From Thermoanaerobaculia bacterium (GTDB lineage: Bacteria; Acidobacteriota; Thermoanaerobaculia; Multivoradales; UBA5704), in contig JBGAGQ010000008.1 of assembly GCA_044226625.1 (NCBI GenBank), positions 71,836 to 135,835 of the forward strand: a stretch of 64,000 bases of DNA, in the 5' to 3' direction. This document shows positions 45,783 through 55,941 of the stretch, piece after piece. The translations under genes were made by a program, and so were the position numbers. Within the stretch, counting starts at the first letter, position 1; every line of letters begins with the position of its first letter. The notes under the pieces are model-generated. The model saw only the letters and a list, made by a program, of their open reading frames with translations. It made no database searches and was not told the DNA's origin.

Positions 45783-46529
45783 TCAAATGTAGAGACCGCC
45801 CGAGACGTTGATCGTCTCGCCGGTGATGTAGGCGGCGTCTTCGCTCGCGAGAAACGCCACGACGCCCGCGATGTCGGCGACGTGCCCGAGCCGCTTGAGC
45901 GCGATCTGGCTCGCGAGCTCGGCGCGGTTGGCCTCCGGCAGCGCATCGGTCATCGCGGTTTCGATGTAGCCCGGCGCGACCACGTTCACGGTCAGGTTCC
46001 GGCTGCCGAGCTCGCGCGCGAGCGATTTGGTGAACCCGATCAGGCCGGCTTTCGACGCGGCGTAGTTCGCCTGTCCGGCGTTGCCCATCAGGCCCACCAC
46101 GGAGGAGACCGAGATCACCCGGCCCCAGCGCTTCTTCATCATGCCGCGCACCAGCTCCTTGGTGAGCGCGAAGGCCCCGGTGAGATTGGTCCGGAGTACC
46201 CGGTCCCAGTCCTCGAGGCTCATACGCAGCAGGAGATTGTCGGCGGTGATGCCGGCGTTGTTCACCAAGATGTCGATCGCGGCGAGATCCGCGGGCAGCT
46301 CCTTCAAGCGCTCCGGAATGGACGCCGGCTCGGAGACGTCGAGAGTGAAGGCGTGGGCGCGACCGCCCGAGCCCTCGATCGCGGCGACGAGCGCCGCGAG
46401 CTTTTCGGCGTTGCGCGCCGCGACGATTACCTTCGCCCCCTCGGCAGCCAGCCGTTTCGCGATCGCCTCGCCGATGCCCTGCGACGCCCCGGTGACCAGG
46501 GCGGTCTTTCCCTCGAGTCGGCCTTCCAT
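45783..46529 (-). CDS. fabG: 3-oxoacyl-ACP reductase
   Basis: [19 protein letters not shown]. Confidence 0.96.
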
Positions 46530-46603
46530 GCGTGTTCTCCTCCTCCGGATCCTACTTTTCGAAGCGTCGCTTCTCGAATCTCGGCTCGAGGGCGCGAGCC
46601 GCC

Positions 46604-47587
46604 CTACTTGTCCTCGTCGGACATCGCGAGCAGCTTTTCGAGCTGCGCCGGCTCGCCCGTCGAGCCCACGCGCAAACCTTCTTTGATTCGCCGGTTGAGC
46701 CCCGCGAGCACCGTGCCCGGTCCGACCTCGACGAACAGGCCGACTTCCATCCGCTCCGCCATGTAGAGCACCGACTCGGCCCAGCGGACACCATGGTCGA
46801 TCTGGCGGATCAGCGCGTCGCGCGCCGCCTCGCCGGTCGTGACCGGCGCCGCGTCGACGTTGGTGATCACCGGCGCCACCGGATCGGCGAACGGAACCGC
46901 GGCGAGCAGCTCCGCCATCCCCTCGCGCGCCGGCTTCATGAGCGGCGAGTGGAACGGAGCGGAGACCGCGAGAATCGTCGCCTTGCGGGCGCCGCGCGCC
47001 TTGGCGAGCTCGACCGCGCGATCGATCGCGGACCGGTGGCCCGCGAGCACCGTCTGCCCCGGGCCGTTCAGGTTCGCGACGGCGCAGACCTCGTCCGGCG
47101 TCTCGGCGACCGCGTCGCGGGCGACCTCGCCGATCGTCTCGGGATCCATGCCGATGATCGCAGCCATCGCCCCGACGCCCACCGGCACCGCCGCCTGCAT
47201 CAGCTCGCCGCGGCGGCGCACCAGGCGGAGCGCGGCGCCGAAATCGAGCGCCCCGGCGGCCACGAGCGCCGACCATTCGCCGAGGGAATGTCCGGCGTAC
47301 GCCACGGGCGAAAACGGCGTGCCGGTCTCCCGGAGCGCACGGTGGACCGCGATCGACGTCGCGAGCAGCGCGGGCTGGGTGTTGGCGGTCAGGTTCAGCT
47401 CGTCTTCCGGACCTTCGAAGCAGAGCTTCGAGAGCGGCTCACCGAGCGCGTCGTCGGCCTCGGCGAAGGTCTCGCGCGCGGCGGCCGAAGCGTCGGCCCA
47501 GGCGCGCCCCATCCCGACCTTCTGCGCCCCCTGCCCGGGGAAGACGAAAGCGTGCGTACGTGCGAGCGGGCCAGTCGCTTCACTCAT
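46604..47587 (-). CDS. fabD: Malonyl-CoA:ACP transacylase
   Basis: FPGQGAQ, GHSLGE, SAPFHS. Confidence 0.96.
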   Translation of the reverse strand: MSEATGPLARTHAFVFPGQGAQKVGMGRAWADASAAARETFAEADDALGEPLSKLCFEGPEDELNLTANTQPALLATSIAVHRALRETGTPFSPVAYAGHSLGEWSALVAAGALDFGAALRLVRRRGELMQAAVPVGVGAMAAIIGMDPETIGEVARDAVAETPDEVCAVANLNGPGQTVLAGHRSAIDRAVELAKARGARKATILAVSAPFHSPLMKPAREGMAELLAAVPFADPVAPVITNVDAAPVTTGEAARDALIRQIDHGVRWAESVLYMAERMEVGLFVEVGPGTVLAGLNRRIKEGLRVGSTGEPAQLEKLLAMSDEDK

Positions 47588-48636
47588 CGAACGGGAATCT
47601 CCTCGGTCTCCACCGGAGCGGCGAGCAGGCTCGCCTCTTGCCGGTGCATCTCCGCCAGCTTGTCGCGGATCTTTTCGTGCACGCGCCCCTCGGCGAACTC
47701 GACCGCCCGCCGGATCGCGTTGCGGATCGCCCGCGGCGTCGAGCGGCCGTGGCCGATGAAGCACCCGCCTTCGACACCCAAGAGCGGCGCCGCACCGTAC
47801 TCGGTGTAATCGGTGCGGGTGCGGAAACGGTCGATCGCCGGCTTCAAGATCGCGTAACCGAGCTGGGTTCGGCGGCTCTTGCCGATCTCCTCGCCGAGCA
47901 TCCGCCCGAGGAGCTCGGCGAGCGCCTCGGCGCTCTTCAACACGACGTTGCCGACGAAACCGTCGCAGACGACCACGTCGACCGTGCCCTGGAAGACGTC
48001 TCCCCCTTCGACGTTGCCGACGAAGTGGAGGCCGGTTCGCTTGAGCACCTTGAAGACCTCGCGGGTGAGCTCGCTCCCTTTGGTCTCCTCCTCGCCGATC
48101 GACAGCAGGCCGATTCGCGGCGACTCGGTGCCGATCACCTCTTGGGCATAGAAATGCCCCATGACGGCGAACTGGCGGAGGTGGGCGGGCTTGCTGTCGA
48201 CGTTCGCGCCCACGTCGAGCAGCACCGTGCGCCCGTGGGCGCTAGGAACGACCGCCGCGAGCGCCGGCCGGTCGACCCCGGCGGTGGTGCCGAGGACCAT
48301 CTTGGCGGCGATCATCGCGGCGCCGGTGTGCCCTGCGGTCACCATCGACTGCGCGCGCCCGTCGCGCACCAGCTCGGCGCACAGGCGCACGGACGAGCGG
48401 CGCTTTTTTCGCAGCGGCGCGGTCGCCGGGTCGTCCATGTCGATGAACTCGTCGGCGTGCACCAGCTCGATGCGCCCCCGCGGATCGCCGAGCCGCGCGA
48501 TCTCCGACGCGATCCGCTCGCGGTCCCCGACCAGGAGGATCGAGATCCCGTCCTCGACCGCCGCGAGAAAAGCGCCCTCCACCGCGGCTCGCGGCGCGAA
48601 GTCTCCCCCCATGGCGTCGACGGCGATGCGCATCAC
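47584..48636 (-). CDS. plsX: Phosphate acyltransferase PlsX
   Basis: IAVDAMGGD, LDVGAN, DGFVGN..LK. Confidence 0.96.
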   Translation of the reverse strand: MMRIAVDAMGGDFAPRAAVEGAFLAAVEDGISILLVGDRERIASEIARLGDPRGRIELVHADEFIDMDDPATAPLRKKRRSSVRLCAELVRDGRAQSMVTAGHTGAAMIAAKMVLGTTAGVDRPALAAVVPSAHGRTVLLDVGANVDSKPAHLRQFAVMGHFYAQEVIGTESPRIGLLSIGEEETKGSELTREVFKVLKRTGLHFVGNVEGGDVFQGTVDVVVCDGFVGNVVLKSAEALAELLGRMLGEEIGKSRRTQLGYAILKPAIDRFRTRTDYTEYGAAPLLGVEGGCFIGHGRSTPRAIRNAIRRAVEFAEGRVHEKIRDKLAEMHRQEASLLAAPVETEEIPVR

Positions 48637-48829
48637 GTTTCGGATTGTGGCGTAAGGAGCGGCACGATTCTACCCGCAATGCGATCCGCCGGGCGGCGGG
48701 GCGGATCGGTGCCGGCGTCGCCTGGTCGCGGCCAGACGCCGGCTACAGCGGAGGCACGAATAAACCTCCGGCCGCGAGCGAACCGTTTCGCGGCTCGCTC
48801 CGGCGGCGCTCGGCGGGGCGTGAGGGGCC

Positions 48830-49015
48830 TTAGGCCTTCTCGGCGACTTCGATGACCTGGCGGTCGTTGTAGAACCCGCAGCTGCCACAGGCGCGATGCG
48901 GCAGCTTCGACTCGCCGCAGTTCGGGCAGTTGGAGGTGGCGGGCCGCGCCAGGGCGTCGTGCGACCGGCGGCGGTCGCGGCGGGCTTTGGAATGGCGGCG
49001 CTTTGGATTAGGCAT
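48830..49015 (-). CDS. rpmF: 50S ribosomal protein L32
   Basis: MPNPKRRHSK, CPNC...CGSC. Confidence 0.96.
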   Translation of the reverse strand: MPNPKRRHSKARRDRRRSHDALARPATSNCPNCGESKLPHRACGSCGFYNDRQVIEVAEKA

Positions 49016-49213
49016 CGTCGACCTCTAGCGTCTCGGAAGGAATGGTGCCTTCCGGCGTCTCTCGAACATCGTCAAATTCGGCGGATTTCAGTCTTCCGGC
49101 CCACGAACGCGGCCCGGGACCCTCGAAATCGGCGCGGCTTGCTTCGTCCCACGATTCTAACGTCTAACCGCCTCCGGGCGCGATCCTCCGCGCCGAGGCG
49201 GGAAACTCCCTGG

Positions 49214-49759
49214 CTACGACCCGCTCCCCTCGCTCTTCCCCAGCTTCTCGCGGATCGCCGCGAGGCCGGCCCAACGGGGGTCGGGCACCTCGCGGTCGCA
49301 GCCGCAGTCGCCCGCGTTCAAATCCGCGCCGCAGCGCGGGCAAAGGCCCTGGCAGTCGTCGCGGCAGAGCGGCTTCATCGGGATGTTCAGCTGGACCTGC
49401 TCGAAGAGGACCGGCTCCGTGCGGAACTTGTCGCCCTCGACCTGCCAGACCCCGAGATCGCGCGCCCCCAGCTCACGCTCCTCGCCTTCGACCAACTCCT
49501 TGCCCTGCACCACGAGCAACTCGATCCTCGGCTCCACCTTCTCGACGAACTGCGAGAGGCAGCGCGTGCAGGCGAGCGTCTGCTCGTACGCGAGATCCGC
49601 CGTGAACAGGAACCCCGGATCGGCGAACACCATCCGTCCGGAGCAGTCGATCGGGCTCAAAGCGACCAAATCGGGGCTATCCAGCTCCGACGGTGCAACC
49701 TCGACCGTCTCCCGCCAGGCGAGGGGCTCCTCGCGAACCTGTTCCAACCAAATCTGCAT
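49214..49759 (-). CDS. yceD: DUF177/YceD family protein
   Basis: CTRCL, P.KPLC.DDC.GLCP.CG, DPRW; position upstream of rpmF. Confidence 0.92.
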   Translation of the reverse strand: MQIWLEQVREEPLAWRETVEVAPSELDSPDLVALSPIDCSGRMVFADPGFLFTADLAYEQTLACTRCLSQFVEKVEPRIELLVVQGKELVEGEERELGARDLGVWQVEGDKFRTEPVLFEQVQLNIPMKPLCRDDCQGLCPRCGADLNAGDCGCDREVPDPRWAGLAAIREKLGKSEGSGS

Positions 49760-49881: not shown

Positions 49882-50493
49882 TTACCCCACCTCCGCCATC
49901 CTCCATTCGACCTTCCCTGCTTGGTAGCCGCCGATCATCAGGCAGGGACGTTCGAAGCAGTCCGGCGTCTCGCCGCGGCCGAGGGCGGCGAGGAGGGGCA
50001 AGGGATCGTGGACGAACTCGACGATCTGGAGCGGGGCGTCCTCCCCTTCCGGCCGTGGGCGCTGGAGCTCGAGCCCGGCGCGTTCCCAGGCCGCGACTTC
50101 GGCGAGGTAGGGCGTCGGGGGCTCCAGGCCCTCTTCCAGGCGACGGAGAAGGAAGTCGCAGAACGAGACCGCCTCGCCGAGGTAGTAGAAGCTCACCGGC
50201 GGATGACGGCGCCAGAACTCGGCCACCTCGTCGGCGAGCGCCTCCTTCCCTAAGGCCGCGCAGGTGAGCGGCAGCTGGCCCATCAGCTTGCTCAGGCGGA
50301 ACCCCTTGTGGAGCGTGCGGGTGACGTCCATTCCGGGGTCGGAGGCGACGGCGAACAGGCGCTCGCGCTCCAGCTCCGAAAGGCCGGCACGATCCGCGGC
50401 CAAGGTGGCCTCCCGACCGGTCCGCACCTCGTCACGAAACTCGGGATCGATCACCAGCCGCGCGAAGAGCGCTTGAAACGCCGTGGCGCTCAC
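49882..50493 (-). CDS. MNIO partner protein (DUF2063/RiPP-recognition-element-like)
   Basis: GTG start overlaps the DUF692 stop (GTGA); FQALFARL, LPLT..ALG, EA..F..FL, EVA.WE patterns. Confidence 0.75.
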   Translation of the reverse strand: MSATAFQALFARLVIDPEFRDEVRTGREATLAADRAGLSELERERLFAVASDPGMDVTRTLHKGFRLSKLMGQLPLTCAALGKEALADEVAEFWRRHPPVSFYYLGEAVSFCDFLLRRLEEGLEPPTPYLAEVAAWERAGLELQRPRPEGEDAPLQIVEFVHDPLPLLAALGRGETPDCFERPCLMIGGYQAGKVEWRMAEVG

Positions 50494-51413
50494 GCCGCCA
50501 CCTCCGCGAGGTGGGTGGGAACCGGCTGCCAGCGGCGCCAAGCTTCGCGCAGCGCGTCGAGCTCCTCCGCCAACCGGTCGCTTCCCATGTCGACGAACCA
50601 CGAGCCCATCATCTCGAAGGTGACGCCGCCGAGGTTCGGGCAGCGCGGCAGGCAATAGCGCAGCAGCTCCCAAACCGGCTCGGGGAGCGGCCCGCAGTGC
50701 GCGTCGAGATACCAACCGTCATGCTCCATCCCGCCCGCCACGTGGATCTCTCCCACATTGCCGAGATCGAGCTCGCCGAGCAGGCGGAAAGGATCGGTCT
50801 GATGGTTCCGGGCGTTGCAGTAGACGTTGTGAAGATCGAGCAGCAGGCCGCAGCCGGTCTCGGCGCAGAGTGAATTCAGGAATTCGGCGTCGCCCATCTC
50901 CTCGCCCGGCATCGAGAAGAAGTAGACGTTGTTCTCGAGCAGAAACGGCAGCGGCACGCGGCGCTTCACCTCGGCCACGCGGGGCGCCAGCGCGTCCAGG
51001 GTTTCCCGGTCGCGCGGGAGCGGCAGCGTCACCCCCACGTTGAGCTCGTCGACGCCGTGCTCGGCGAGGTTCCAGGCCAGGTGGTCGCTATGCCAGGGAA
51101 AGTCGAACCAGCGGCGCCATGTCTCGATCTGGTCGAGGTGCCCGTGGTTGAACCGATGCGCCGAGCCGATCGAGAGGCCGATGCCATGCGGTACGACCGG
51201 CCGGCCGGCGGAGATTCGCCGCAGATAGTCGATCCCTTCCCGGTCGTCGAGGTAGCGCGGCGTCTTTCCCGCCCCTCGATCGGTCCAGAGGATGTCGGGG
51301 ACGACTTCCAAATAGTCGAAGGTGTCGCCTCGAGCTTCGAGGAACGGGCGGAGGGCGGGCTGGTACGCGAGCCCCACCCCCAGCTTCGGAACGGCCAACG
51401 AGACGTCGCTCAT
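50490..51413 (-). CDS. DUF692 multinuclear non-heme iron oxidative enzyme (MNIO)
   Basis: HGIGLSIG, SDHL, LLEN, LLLDLHN, EIHVAG, DAH, TFE iron-ligand motifs. Confidence 0.93.
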   Translation of the reverse strand: MSDVSLAVPKLGVGLAYQPALRPFLEARGDTFDYLEVVPDILWTDRGAGKTPRYLDDREGIDYLRRISAGRPVVPHGIGLSIGSAHRFNHGHLDQIETWRRWFDFPWHSDHLAWNLAEHGVDELNVGVTLPLPRDRETLDALAPRVAEVKRRVPLPFLLENNVYFFSMPGEEMGDAEFLNSLCAETGCGLLLDLHNVYCNARNHQTDPFRLLGELDLGNVGEIHVAGGMEHDGWYLDAHCGPLPEPVWELLRYCLPRCPNLGGVTFEMMGSWFVDMGSDRLAEELDALREAWRRWQPVPTHLAEVAA

Positions 51414-51473
51414 CGCGAGACCTCCCTTTTTTCGGCCCGAGTGGAAGAGCGGTGCGGCGGGCGAAGGGAGAGA

Positions 51474-51683
51474 TCAGCGAAGGGTCGAGAGCGTTTCGTC
51501 CTGCAGGAGGAGCCGGTCGAGGCCGGAGAGGCAGGGAGCGCAGCCGCGAACGCCCGGCAGCTCCGGGACGGTCAGCGTCCGCTCGAGGATCTTGACCAAG
51601 TCGTCGAATTTCGTGGTCGGGGCGACGGCGACGGTCAACGAGCGCACGCCGGGGTGGGCCTTCTTGAGCTGATATTCACTCAT
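51474..51683 (-). CDS. Putative MNIO substrate/precursor (69 aa, GCAPCLSG motif)
   Basis: AGGAG RBS; same strand, 60 bp upstream of DUF692; its only two Cys form a CxxC. Confidence 0.8.
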   Translation of the reverse strand: MSEYQLKKAHPGVRSLTVAVAPTTKFDDLVKILERTLTVPELPGVRGCAPCLSGLDRLLLQDETLSTLR

Positions 51684-51893
51684 GTTCGTTCTCCTGTGGT
51701 GGCCGGCCCAGGTCAGGAGCCGACCGAGAGTTGGGGGCGAAAGCCTTCGCCCGCCGCACCGCGTCTTCCACAGGAGTCAGGCGCTCTCGAGGCGCGCCCG
51801 TTACATCGAATCTTTACAAACCCGGTTCTTTACGAACGAAACCGAGCGGACGAGGAGCCCTTCGAACGCAGAAGCCGTTCTAGGTCCCGAGGC

Positions 51894-54322: not shown

Positions 54323-54642
54323 GGTGGTGCCTCTCCCGGAGCTTGAGTGGTTGAGTACGAGGACCCGTGGCCACTCTAAGGACGCTCCCCTCACGTGTCA
54401 ACGGCGCTCGTCTCACCCTTTCTCCCTGAGCCGCCGCCCCCTTGAGAGAAGGCTACGGTTAGAGGCGGCGCAAGTCCCGGATTTAGGAGGTCGTGGCACT
54501 CAGCAGTTACACCCACCCTGCAAGGGGCGCCGCGCTGCGGGCTCACTCCCCCCAAGGCTGGGCGGGATCGGCGTTCCGCTCACCTCCTGCCGCTCCGGCC
54601 GGAGGTGACGAGCCGAAACGATCCAACGCTAAGGAGGCGTGC

Positions 54643-55941
54643 ATGAAAAGGAGTCTCGCGCTGGGCAGAGCGGCCGGCTTCGGGGCCATCGGGCTGCTGT
54701 TTTCGCTGGCCGCCGGAGCCCAGGTCTTGGAGATCGCGGCGATTTACCAGAACACCTTCGGCGGGGTGAACGGCATTCGGGGCAACCGCTCCGTCATCGT
54801 TTCGGACGACGGCCTGTTCGCCTATGCCACGGGCGAGGGTGACTCTTCCGTCGTCGCCTTCTCGCGGGATCCGTCGAACGGGTTCCTCACCCAGATCCAG
54901 CAGCTCAAGAACGCCGTCGACGGCATCGACGGCCTGCGCGGCGCCAACACCGTCCGCCTGAGCCCGAACGGCAAGAACCTCTATGCGACCGGCTTCTTCG
55001 GCGACGCCTTGGCGGTCTTCTCGCGCGACGAGACCACGGGCCTGCTCACCGAAATCCAGGTGCTCAAGGACAACACGCCGGAGGTGCCGGACGGCCTGGA
55101 CGGACCCCTCTGGATCGCCGTGTCGGACGACGGCAAGAACCTCTACACCACGGGTTTCTTCGATGATTCGGTCGTCGTCTTCGACCGCGACCGGAACACC
55201 GGCACGCTCACCTACCGCCAGCTGCTCAAGGACGGCGTGGGCGGAGTCAACGGCCTGAACGGCGCCTACGCGATGTGGATGGATTCCAAGAGCAAGTACA
55301 TCTACGTCGGCGGTCTCGACGACAACGCGGTGAGCGTCTTCCGCCGCGGCTCGCACGGCTCGCTCTCGCAGGTCCAGCAGGTCACCCAGGGGGTCGACGG
55401 GGTGAGCGGTATCACGGGCGTCCGCGGCCTGGTCGGCGACAAGCGCGGCGACCATCTCTACGCGGTCTCGCTCGACGACAGCGCGATCTCGACCTTCGAC
55501 ATCCGCAACGGCCACGGCACGTTGACCCAGACCCAGGTGATTCGCGATACCGATGCGGGGATCGACGGCCTCGGCGGCGCCACCGGCATCAACATCACGC
55601 CGGACGGCCGGTACGTGATCGCCACCGGATTCCTCGAGCGCAAGATGTCGGTCTGGGCGGTCGACCGCGGGGACGACGACGACGATGACGACAGCCACGA
55701 GGGCGACGCCTACCAGGCCAACGACGACCACCATGGAACCGGACAGCTGTCGCTCGTCCAGGTGCTCGCCAACCTGGTGGACACGCCGTTCGGCTTGAAC
55801 GGTCCGATCGATCTCAATTCGTCGCGCGACGGCTGCTACGTCTATTCGTCGAGCTACAACGTCCACATCATCCTGCAGTGGCACGTGATCAACTGCGTGC
55901 CCGGCGGCGATGACGACGACGACGAGGAAGAGGACGACTAA
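54643..55941 (+). CDS. Secreted lactonase-family beta-propeller protein with poly-Asp tracts
   Basis: AAGGAGG RBS; signal peptide; repeated S.DG.NLY.TG..D...VF.RD blades. Confidence 0.85.
   Translation: MKRSLALGRAAGFGAIGLLFSLAAGAQVLEIAAIYQNTFGGVNGIRGNRSVIVSDDGLFAYATGEGDSSVVAFSRDPSNGFLTQIQQLKNAVDGIDGLRGANTVRLSPNGKNLYATGFFGDALAVFSRDETTGLLTEIQVLKDNTPEVPDGLDGPLWIAVSDDGKNLYTTGFFDDSVVVFDRDRNTGTLTYRQLLKDGVGGVNGLNGAYAMWMDSKSKYIYVGGLDDNAVSVFRRGSHGSLSQVQQVTQGVDGVSGITGVRGLVGDKRGDHLYAVSLDDSAISTFDIRNGHGTLTQTQVIRDTDAGIDGLGGATGINITPDGRYVIATGFLERKMSVWAVDRGDDDDDDDSHEGDAYQANDDHHGTGQLSLVQVLANLVDTPFGLNGPIDLNSSRDGCYVYSSSYNVHIILQWHVINCVPGGDDDDDEEEDD

Follow-up and report, generated by a model that had tools for sequence, protein, structure and literature searches.

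A three-gene cassette encoding a multinuclear non-haem iron oxidase, a TglI-like partner and a small two-cysteine protein in a Thermoanaerobaculia genome

The locus described here raises the question of whether a small protein with only two cysteine residues is the substrate of the iron oxidase encoded beside it and, if so, what the modification would produce and where the product would act. The locus is located in a 64,000-nucleotide stretch of DNA from a Thermoanaerobaculia bacterium (contig JBGAGQ010000008.1, positions 71,836 to 135,835 of the forward strand; hereafter the window, whose numbering is used throughout) and comprises three co-directional genes, in the order A-B-C, that make up a cassette of about 1.8 kb. 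A preliminary description of the same DNA, made from its letters alone, had reported three co-directional minus-strand open reading frames (ORFs) here, and all three were found where it had placed them:

51474-51683, minus strand: gene A, a 69-residue putative substrate or precursor
50490-51413, minus strand: gene B, a 307-residue multinuclear non-haem iron oxidase (MNIO; DUF692, PF05114)
49882-50493, minus strand: gene C, a 203-residue TglI-like partner ("PME-type 2")

As a system of MNIO, partner and putative substrate, the cassette is uncharacterised and lies apart from the bufferin, ChrH, TglH, ApyH and MbnB subfamilies; it is a variant of the well-known MNIO kind, not a new kind. It represents a rare branch of the MNIO family that could perform new cysteine chemistry. 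That B and C act on A as their substrate was considered likely, and Cys51 of A is probably the residue that is modified; the assignment of the product as a heterocycle or a metal site is tentative, with rather less than an even chance of being correct.

The B protein matched PF05114 (MbnB_TglH_ChrH) with 189.2 bits, compared with a gathering cut-off of 25, and an E-value of 1.1e-55. Nine iron ligands of TglH are given in the TglHI structure paper (PMC10880893), and eight of these were identical in B in the HMMER alignment (H111, E160, D193, N196, H224, D237, H239 and E267). The ninth, TglH His71, fell just outside the aligned region; the matching H-G-[IV]-[GS]-L-S motif of B contains a histidine, H76, that is invariant. 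The intact iron ligands previously claimed for the DUF692 enzyme were thus confirmed. None of the cut-offs of the curated NCBIfam MNIO profiles was reached: BufB (NF050167), the best-scoring, gave 157.4 bits (cut-off 310), HvfB (NF003818) 121.7 bits (cut-off 360), ApyH 114 bits (cut-off 400), ChrH (NF050165) 63.8 bits (cut-off 600) and MbnB (TIGR04159) 19.9 bits (cut-off 325). The phmmer score against TglH was 71 bits, a distant relation. The scores agreed with the earlier proposal that the cassette falls outside the characterised subfamilies.

Elsewhere in this genome, on another contig (C66, L011:957-3751), lies a second cluster, of the canonical bufferin type. Its MNIO passes the BufB cut-off (361.2 bits compared with 310) and its precursor is a Cys-rich protein of 144 residues with a twin-arginine-like N-terminus and a weak BufA2 match; an HvfC/DUF2063-like partner and, in the usual place of DoxX, a membrane protein of the LIC_13387 family complete the cluster. 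Because this second MNIO passes the BufB threshold, the low scores of B reflect a real divergence and not an effect of sequence composition.

The sequence of C gave only sub-threshold matches to DUF2063 (E 0.011) and HvfC. The AlphaFold2 model of C, built with 71 aligned homologues, had a mean predicted local distance difference test score (pLDDT) of 91.4 and consisted of a helical N-domain (residues 1-143) followed by a short beta-alpha-beta-beta C-domain. The top PDB match of this model in Foldseek was TglI in the TglHI holoenzyme (8hi7_A, E 3.5e-5), and VIA-align superimposed 191 of the 203 residues on TglI with Z 13.9 and a root-mean-square deviation of 3.6 Å, well separated from the next row (Z 6.8) and from MbnC (Z 5.7). 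The match extends over residues 2-219 of the 268-residue TglI chain (8hci_A) and leaves the last 50 or so residues uncovered. TglI recruits its substrate peptide through a C-terminal domain resembling a recognition element (RRE) of peptides that are ribosomally synthesised and modified post-translationally (RiPPs) (PMC10880893). Because of its TglI-like predicted fold, C is a "PME-type 2" partner in the terms of Antoine et al., and partners of this type accompany precursors without signal peptides (PMC12452194). The GTG start of C overlaps the TGA stop of B in the shared bases GTGA, and the C homologues in other genomes likewise start at the B stop codon, overlapping or abutting it; the translational coupling of B and C had been noted in the preliminary description.

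Residues 1-66 of C resemble Os1348, a RiPP-leader-like protein of the NHLP clan (VIA-align Z 6.8 to 6lk7_C; NCBIfam NF038399, E 0.042). PF14407 was found in one C homologue and was matched at E 0.0038 by the partner from a sister locus. A fold of the leader-peptide type within a partner protein is curious.

The A protein has just two cysteines, C48 and C51, in the sequence G47-C48-A-P-C51-L-S-G54, and 18 residues follow the motif, as had been described. It lacks a signal peptide: no 11-residue stretch has a Kyte-Doolittle mean above 1.1, and the N-terminus is without a hydrophobic segment. When A was compared with seven orthologues, 219, 88 and 32 nucleotide differences were found at codon positions 3, 1 and 2, respectively, and synonymous changes outnumbered non-synonymous changes in six of seven pairwise comparisons, a pattern that identifies A as a real coding gene under purifying selection. 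Residues 14-62 are conserved throughout, the stretch that follows the motif as much as the core, and C51, S53 and G54 are equally invariant.

Among 61 relatives, A was present in 10, the genome of the window counted; the others were six of the seven other genomes of the genus and a further three from the family, of which one has a divergent A (E 0.001). Wherever downstream sequence exists, B lies directly after A (9/9, 11/11 and, for L023 and L034-L036, 4/4 loci), and when the flanking regions at nine loci were compared all against all, only A, B and C proved to be conserved throughout. In the window, the flanking genes encode a TPR/PLDc_N membrane protein upstream and YceD downstream. As the preliminary description had stated, the cluster has no protease, exporter or DoxX gene: none was found among these flanking genes and none was conserved over the nine loci, and the same nine loci had no conserved PEARL ligase or other tgl or tailoring gene beside the cassette.

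A search of the same 61 relatives with B gave 17 orthologous places with identities of at least 47%, nine of which, with identities of at least 74%, were in the A-carrying genomes. Conservation of a Cys-motif ORF beside orthologous enzymes had been named beforehand as a check on the proposal, and all 17 orthologues were paired with a small ORF bearing the motif [C/H]-x-x-C-x-S-G, the pairing in G036 being one of separate short contigs (ORF on C450, enzyme on C425) on which adjacency is not visible. In the eight places that remain when the A-carrying genomes are set aside, the small ORF was just upstream in every case and had the same core with a different remainder. Most of these sister precursors are 45-51 residues long with the core C-P-T-C-x-S-G-x-D-P, and two loci, L030 and L033, have two copies in tandem. 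The L010 precursor is a longer form with A-C-P-H-C-Y-S-G, and the first cysteine is replaced by histidine in L031 (H-P-K-C-C-S-G) and L032 (H-Q-A-C-L-S-G). The partner proteins of the sister loci L027-L031, with 211-293 residues, are longer than C (203 residues).

A maximum-likelihood tree of 17 enzymes, in which the bufferin-type paralogue was a distant outlier, placed those with the long G-C-x-P-C-L-S-G precursor in one clade (support 100/100) and those with short precursors in another (94/90), and the L010/L032 pair fell outside both. The three enzyme clades track the three precursor types, and [C/H]-x-x-C-x-S-G is the element common to all the precursors; the tree is a description of a small, related set and not a statistical test. 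Enzyme matches flagged as having a TGA inside were considered as possible selenocysteine genes and rejected, since the TGA of L028 is the stop codon of the enzyme itself, after which the partner gene continues in frame, L027 and L030 have a normal stop, and L033 has the same stop codon and, in addition, an interrupted enzyme frame. The sister-cassette MNIO gene of L033 (G022:C14) lies in two frames, which is a frameshift or an assembly error.

Beyond the relatives, a profile of A retrieved 180 proteins among 90%-identity clusters. The motif, of the G-C-x-P-C-x-S-G type, was present in all of the 120 best homologues of these 180, and 115 of the 120 had exactly two cysteines. When 1.84 billion representatives at 50% identity were searched in full with HMMER, 47 A matches at E 0.001 or better were obtained, 40 with C-x-[PG]-C-x-S-G; the rest were three long unrelated proteins and a few that seemed truncated or frameshifted. 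The source labels of the A homologues included Hydrogenophaga taeniospiralis, Lysobacter/Marilutibacter and Xanthomonadaceae, and a C homologue was labelled Blastocatellia. The same cassette occurs among unrelated neighbours in a Hydrogenophaga genome, where the counterparts of B and C show 56% and 44% identity, respectively. The cassette thus recurs in the Thermoanaerobaculia and is sporadic in the Proteobacteria. Scans of 401 genomes across the phylum gave three A matches, two of them real and both in the genus of the window, and scans of 401 genomes of the class to which the Hydrogenophaga genome belongs gave a match only in that genome itself; at most 15 candidates per genome were scored, so these counts are lower bounds. 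The third match in the phylum (G403), an antisense-looking open frame of 701 residues with no MNIO nearby, was spurious, and two matches of 13 residues in an Actinomycetota metagenome-assembled genome (L025 and L026) were rejected as short GC-rich frames without an MNIO. A tblastn search of a plasmid collection with B gave a best identity of about 34% and no close copy.

The preliminary description took A to be a non-secreted protein, and this held for the window, where A lacks a signal peptide, but not for the family as a whole. Five homologues of 108-109 residues (P0131-P0135) have a signal resembling that for twin-arginine translocation (Tat), R-R-R-A-L, then a hydrophobic stretch and A-x-A, before a complete conserved domain, with a third cysteine ahead of the domain. 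All five gave weak, sub-threshold matches to the Tat-target profile. To judge from these sequences, the family is not uniform and some homologues appear to be exported by Tat. The gene context of P0131-P0135 was sought in metagenome contigs in two scans; neither gave a Tat form, and the second gave four ordinary members. Four other homologues (P0248, P0251, P0267 and P0269) have long Lys/Ala-rich N-terminal extensions, similar to histone tails, before the conserved domain.

In the mechanism proposed here, B would work as an MNIO oxidase with three irons and O2 and, together with C as a TglI-like recognition subunit, would constitute the holoenzyme. C would bind the conserved N-terminal strand-helix part of A, approximately residues 14-40, and feed the loop with [C/H]-x-x-C-x-S-G to the iron site of B, which would oxidise the universally conserved second cysteine, Cys51. 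A four-electron oxidation would convert Cys51 to a heterocycle that contains sulfur, either a 5-thiooxazole or one of the oxazolone-thioamide type, and the heterocycle, in combination with position 48 (Cys, or His in two distant variants), would give a soft-metal site, probably for copper. The product, a modified peptide or protein of about 7 kDa, would probably remain in the cell, given that A lacks a signal peptide and that neither a protease nor an exporter is linked to the cassette; in a few relatives the product seems to leave the cytoplasm through Tat. A heterocycle was favored because BufB, which forms 5-thiooxazoles, is the nearest profile and because heterocycle formation is the commonest MNIO outcome (PMC13097082), and a metal site was favored because the Cys-to-His replacement keeps a metal ligand at position 48. 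Taken as a whole, the reading of the locus as a self-contained MNIO maturation cassette that modifies A was given slightly less than an even chance.

Among the closest known systems are the bufferins and captophorins (BufABC, HvfABC and FonABC), which have the same precursor-MNIO-partner order and a cysteine as the likely target, in addition to the BufB profile match. However, the bufferin partner is a DUF2063-RRE protein (PME1) and DoxX is frequent, neither of which is found in the cassette, and the bufferin precursor is Cys-rich with a Sec signal, whereas A has no Sec signal, two cysteines and no Lys-Cys, Cys-Lys or DUF2282 features.

Several observations weigh against the proposed mechanism, 1) B falls below the BufB cut-off (157 vs 310) and is accompanied by a TglI-like protein in place of the DUF2063-RRE partner of the known thiooxazole formers, so that the chemistry may differ from thiooxazole formation, 2) the C-x-x-C-x-x-G core resembles the ChrH substrate motif CPxCGxG, which favors a Cys-Cys macrocycle, 3) the predicted structure of A is poor, so that the proposed recognition strand is a guess, 4) no metal-related gene was seen linked to the cassette at the loci examined, 5) the His-for-Cys variants come from only two loci, L031 and L032, in which the ORF starts are uncertain, 6) the family is rare, so that any function it has is dispensable and 7) in titles and abstracts, the published MNIO literature has no characterised system with an A-type substrate and no chemistry or function for one.

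The second of these points leads to the main rival, a ChrH-like macrocyclisation in which B and C would link Cys48 to the former Cys51 and rearrange the backbone to give a thioether macrocycle and a hydantoin, with or without S-methylation. The substrates of the ChrH subfamily, according to PMC13056109 and PMC10214503, carry CPxCGxG, a two-cysteine core with spacing identical to that of A; the cores of the sister clades are C-P-T-C-x-S-G. Some substrates of the ChrHI/DybH type have the motif embedded in the peptide or are large proteins (PMC13056109). The enzymes and the details of the core are different, however. B scores 63.8 bits against the ChrH cut-off of 600, and its 307 residues leave no room for the C-terminal helical bundle of the ChrH family, whose model has 363 positions. 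The ChrHI partner is a DUF1772 membrane protein, whereas C is soluble and TglI-like. The residue that follows the second cysteine is Gly in the ChrH substrate and is never Gly in the A family (L, I, V, Y, R, H and others), and a Cys-Cys link cannot be universal because two variants have His instead of the first cysteine. The ChrH-like reaction was judged unlikely.

A classical RiPP pathway would treat residues 1 to about 46 of A as a leader that is removed by a protease encoded elsewhere, with export of the short, modified C-terminal peptide as a metallophore or antibiotic. The predicted structure of A is compatible with this pathway. The AlphaFold2 model of A alone, with 95 homologues, had a mean pLDDT of 63 and a predicted template modelling score of 0.39 and was reasonably confident only for a helix at residues 26-38, most of the protein being predicted to be disordered. 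A profile of A against PDB sequences gave chance-level matches only (E 0.35 or worse), and no score above 0.83 was obtained with A in the ESM Atlas, where ubiquitin-like rows at 0.80 were faint and are leads only. The strand-helix-(CxxC)-strand pattern read from the sequence was not confirmed by the model, and the description of A as a small folded cytoplasmic protein lost support on two counts, the poor model and the 45-51 residue peptides of the sister clades, which are typical of RiPP precursors. The short length of these peptides and their occasional tandem arrangement, together with the lack of a confident fold, favor a classical precursor, and TglI-type partners are described as binding leaders (PMC10880893).

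Set against leader removal, no protease or transporter is conserved beside the cassette at any of the nine loci, and the conservation of residues 14-62 does not fall off after the motif. In the Tat variants the signal precedes the complete conserved domain, which suggests that the whole domain is the product. Both the uniform conservation and the position of the Tat signal favor a domain that is kept whole, and the classical RiPP pathway was regarded as improbable.

A reaction of a different kind on A is about equally improbable. It could be a TglH-like excision of the beta-carbon, a hydroxylation, a backbone cleavage or a modification of Ser53 or Gly54. MNIOs catalyse many reaction types (PMC13056109), S53 and G54 are no less invariant than C51, and the nearest fold to the partner is that of TglI. 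The TglHI pair of the Pseudomonas syringae 3-thiaglutamate pathway (PDB 8HCI/8HI7), a two-subunit holoenzyme with a TIM-barrel MNIO, is like the cassette in several respects, with a partner of the same fold, the same set of iron ligands and a substrate without a signal peptide. It differs in that a PEARL ligase appends a cysteine to a scaffold peptide and this C-terminal residue of TglA-Cys is the target, whereas the cysteines of A are internal (C-x-x-C-x-S-G) and the cassette has no PEARL-type or tailoring gene. Moreover, cysteine is the target of most characterised MNIOs (PMC12452194). In the last alternative, A would be a small protein with an accessory, chaperone or regulatory role, and a gene elsewhere would encode the true substrate. 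A prediction of the A+B+C complex with three Fe gave no usable result (score 0.01). The alternative is very improbable given that the invariant Cys motif persists in three enzyme clades in which the remainder of the ORF changes completely, that A lies directly upstream of the MNIO gene, the canonical position of a precursor (PMC12452194), and that only one A-like gene was found in the genome.

A more far-reaching version of the proposed mechanism would have the MNIO install a protein-derived cofactor, the Cys51 heterocycle with Cys/His48, in an intact cytoplasmic mini-protein of about 60 residues that handles metals or redox equivalents, with sister lineages exporting the pre-modified domain to the periplasm through Tat. 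This version is doubtful; if true, the modified mini-protein would be the first cytoplasmic, non-cleaved MNIO product.

The claim that A matches no known substrate was supported insofar as the system fits no characterised subfamily, but it was too strong in two respects. Its C-x-x-C-x-x-G core resembles the ChrA motif CPxCGxG, as discussed, and, by description, A probably belongs to a family that is already named. Antoine et al. (2025, PMC12452194) designated as adjamnio-7 a group of CxxC putative precursors without signal peptides that are encoded beside a small MNIO cluster (#7) and are represented by a Novilysobacter protein. A is likewise small, lacks a signal peptide, contains CxxC and is adjacent to an MNIO, and its homologues include Lysobacter/Marilutibacter and Xanthomonadaceae records, so that the A family is likely to be adjamnio-7, a comparison made by description and taxonomic labels only. 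In its available text, PMC12452194 gives adjamnio-7 no chemistry and no function and has no occurrence of Acidobacteria or Acidobacteriota. If the identity holds, the family has already been flagged in silico and has never been studied experimentally.

The interest of the cassette lies in the combination of a TglI-type partner, a two-cysteine core with ChrH-like spacing and a signal-less precursor that is conserved over its whole length. Each characterised MNIO subfamily has so far yielded a different peptide chemistry, according to the published abstracts, and three genes in about 1.8 kb are a compact case for the study of what decides the outcome of an MNIO reaction; with no linked protease or exporter, the case is also directly testable. 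It also bears on the possibility of an intracellular function for MNIO products. For structure-activity work, a panel is provided by the three types of enzyme and precursor that vary together, by the His-for-Cys variants and by the Tat-signal variants.

The signals around the genes were also examined. The A-B spacer is 60 nt, and the following elements were recognised in it and upstream of A:

51421-51426, minus strand: GGGAGG within the A-B spacer, a Shine-Dalgarno-like sequence 7 nt ahead of the B start codon (ATG)
51689-51694, minus strand: AGGAGA, a Shine-Dalgarno-like sequence 5 nt ahead of the A start codon (ATG), kept in 7/7 aligned upstream regions
51700-51805, minus strand: upstream block, conserved genus-wide, in which TGTAAC and CGCCT are separated by about 17 nt and are followed by TGGAAG.TGCGGTG and a weak GC hairpin

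The block at 51700-51805 is possibly a promoter or a 5' leader. Scans of the region for sigma-70 promoters and terminators found none, and Rfam gave one sub-threshold match and no family above threshold. The evidence for RNA structure in a 5' leader was weak, with an RNAalifold covariation term of +1.28 kcal/mol. As a regulon motif, TGTAAC-N16-18-CGCCT was unenriched, with eight hits in the genome; 40 permuted hexamers gave 5.1 hits on average, and at least eight were reached by 10 of them. In a metatranscriptome library, three small contigs (78-103 nt, 0-3 differences) covered 51483-51633, within A, and the rest of the 3.8-kb stretch gave only pieces of chance length; DNA carry-over is possible in such a library and the contigs cannot rank the genes, so they are a weak hint that A is transcribed.

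The TPR membrane gene upstream of A is common to members of the genus only. On the other side, the cassette abuts a housekeeping run at 45783-49759, YceD-RpmF-PlsX-FabD-FabG, in which YceD was identified by Pfam and the other four genes are what we take them to be from their translations. YceD lies beside the cassette only at the window's own locus, which indicates that the insertion site differs between close relatives. Further along the window, at 54493-55941 on the plus strand, is a gene for a secreted-looking repeat protein of 482 residues with poly-Asp runs (D7-D8) near the middle of the protein and at the C-terminus.

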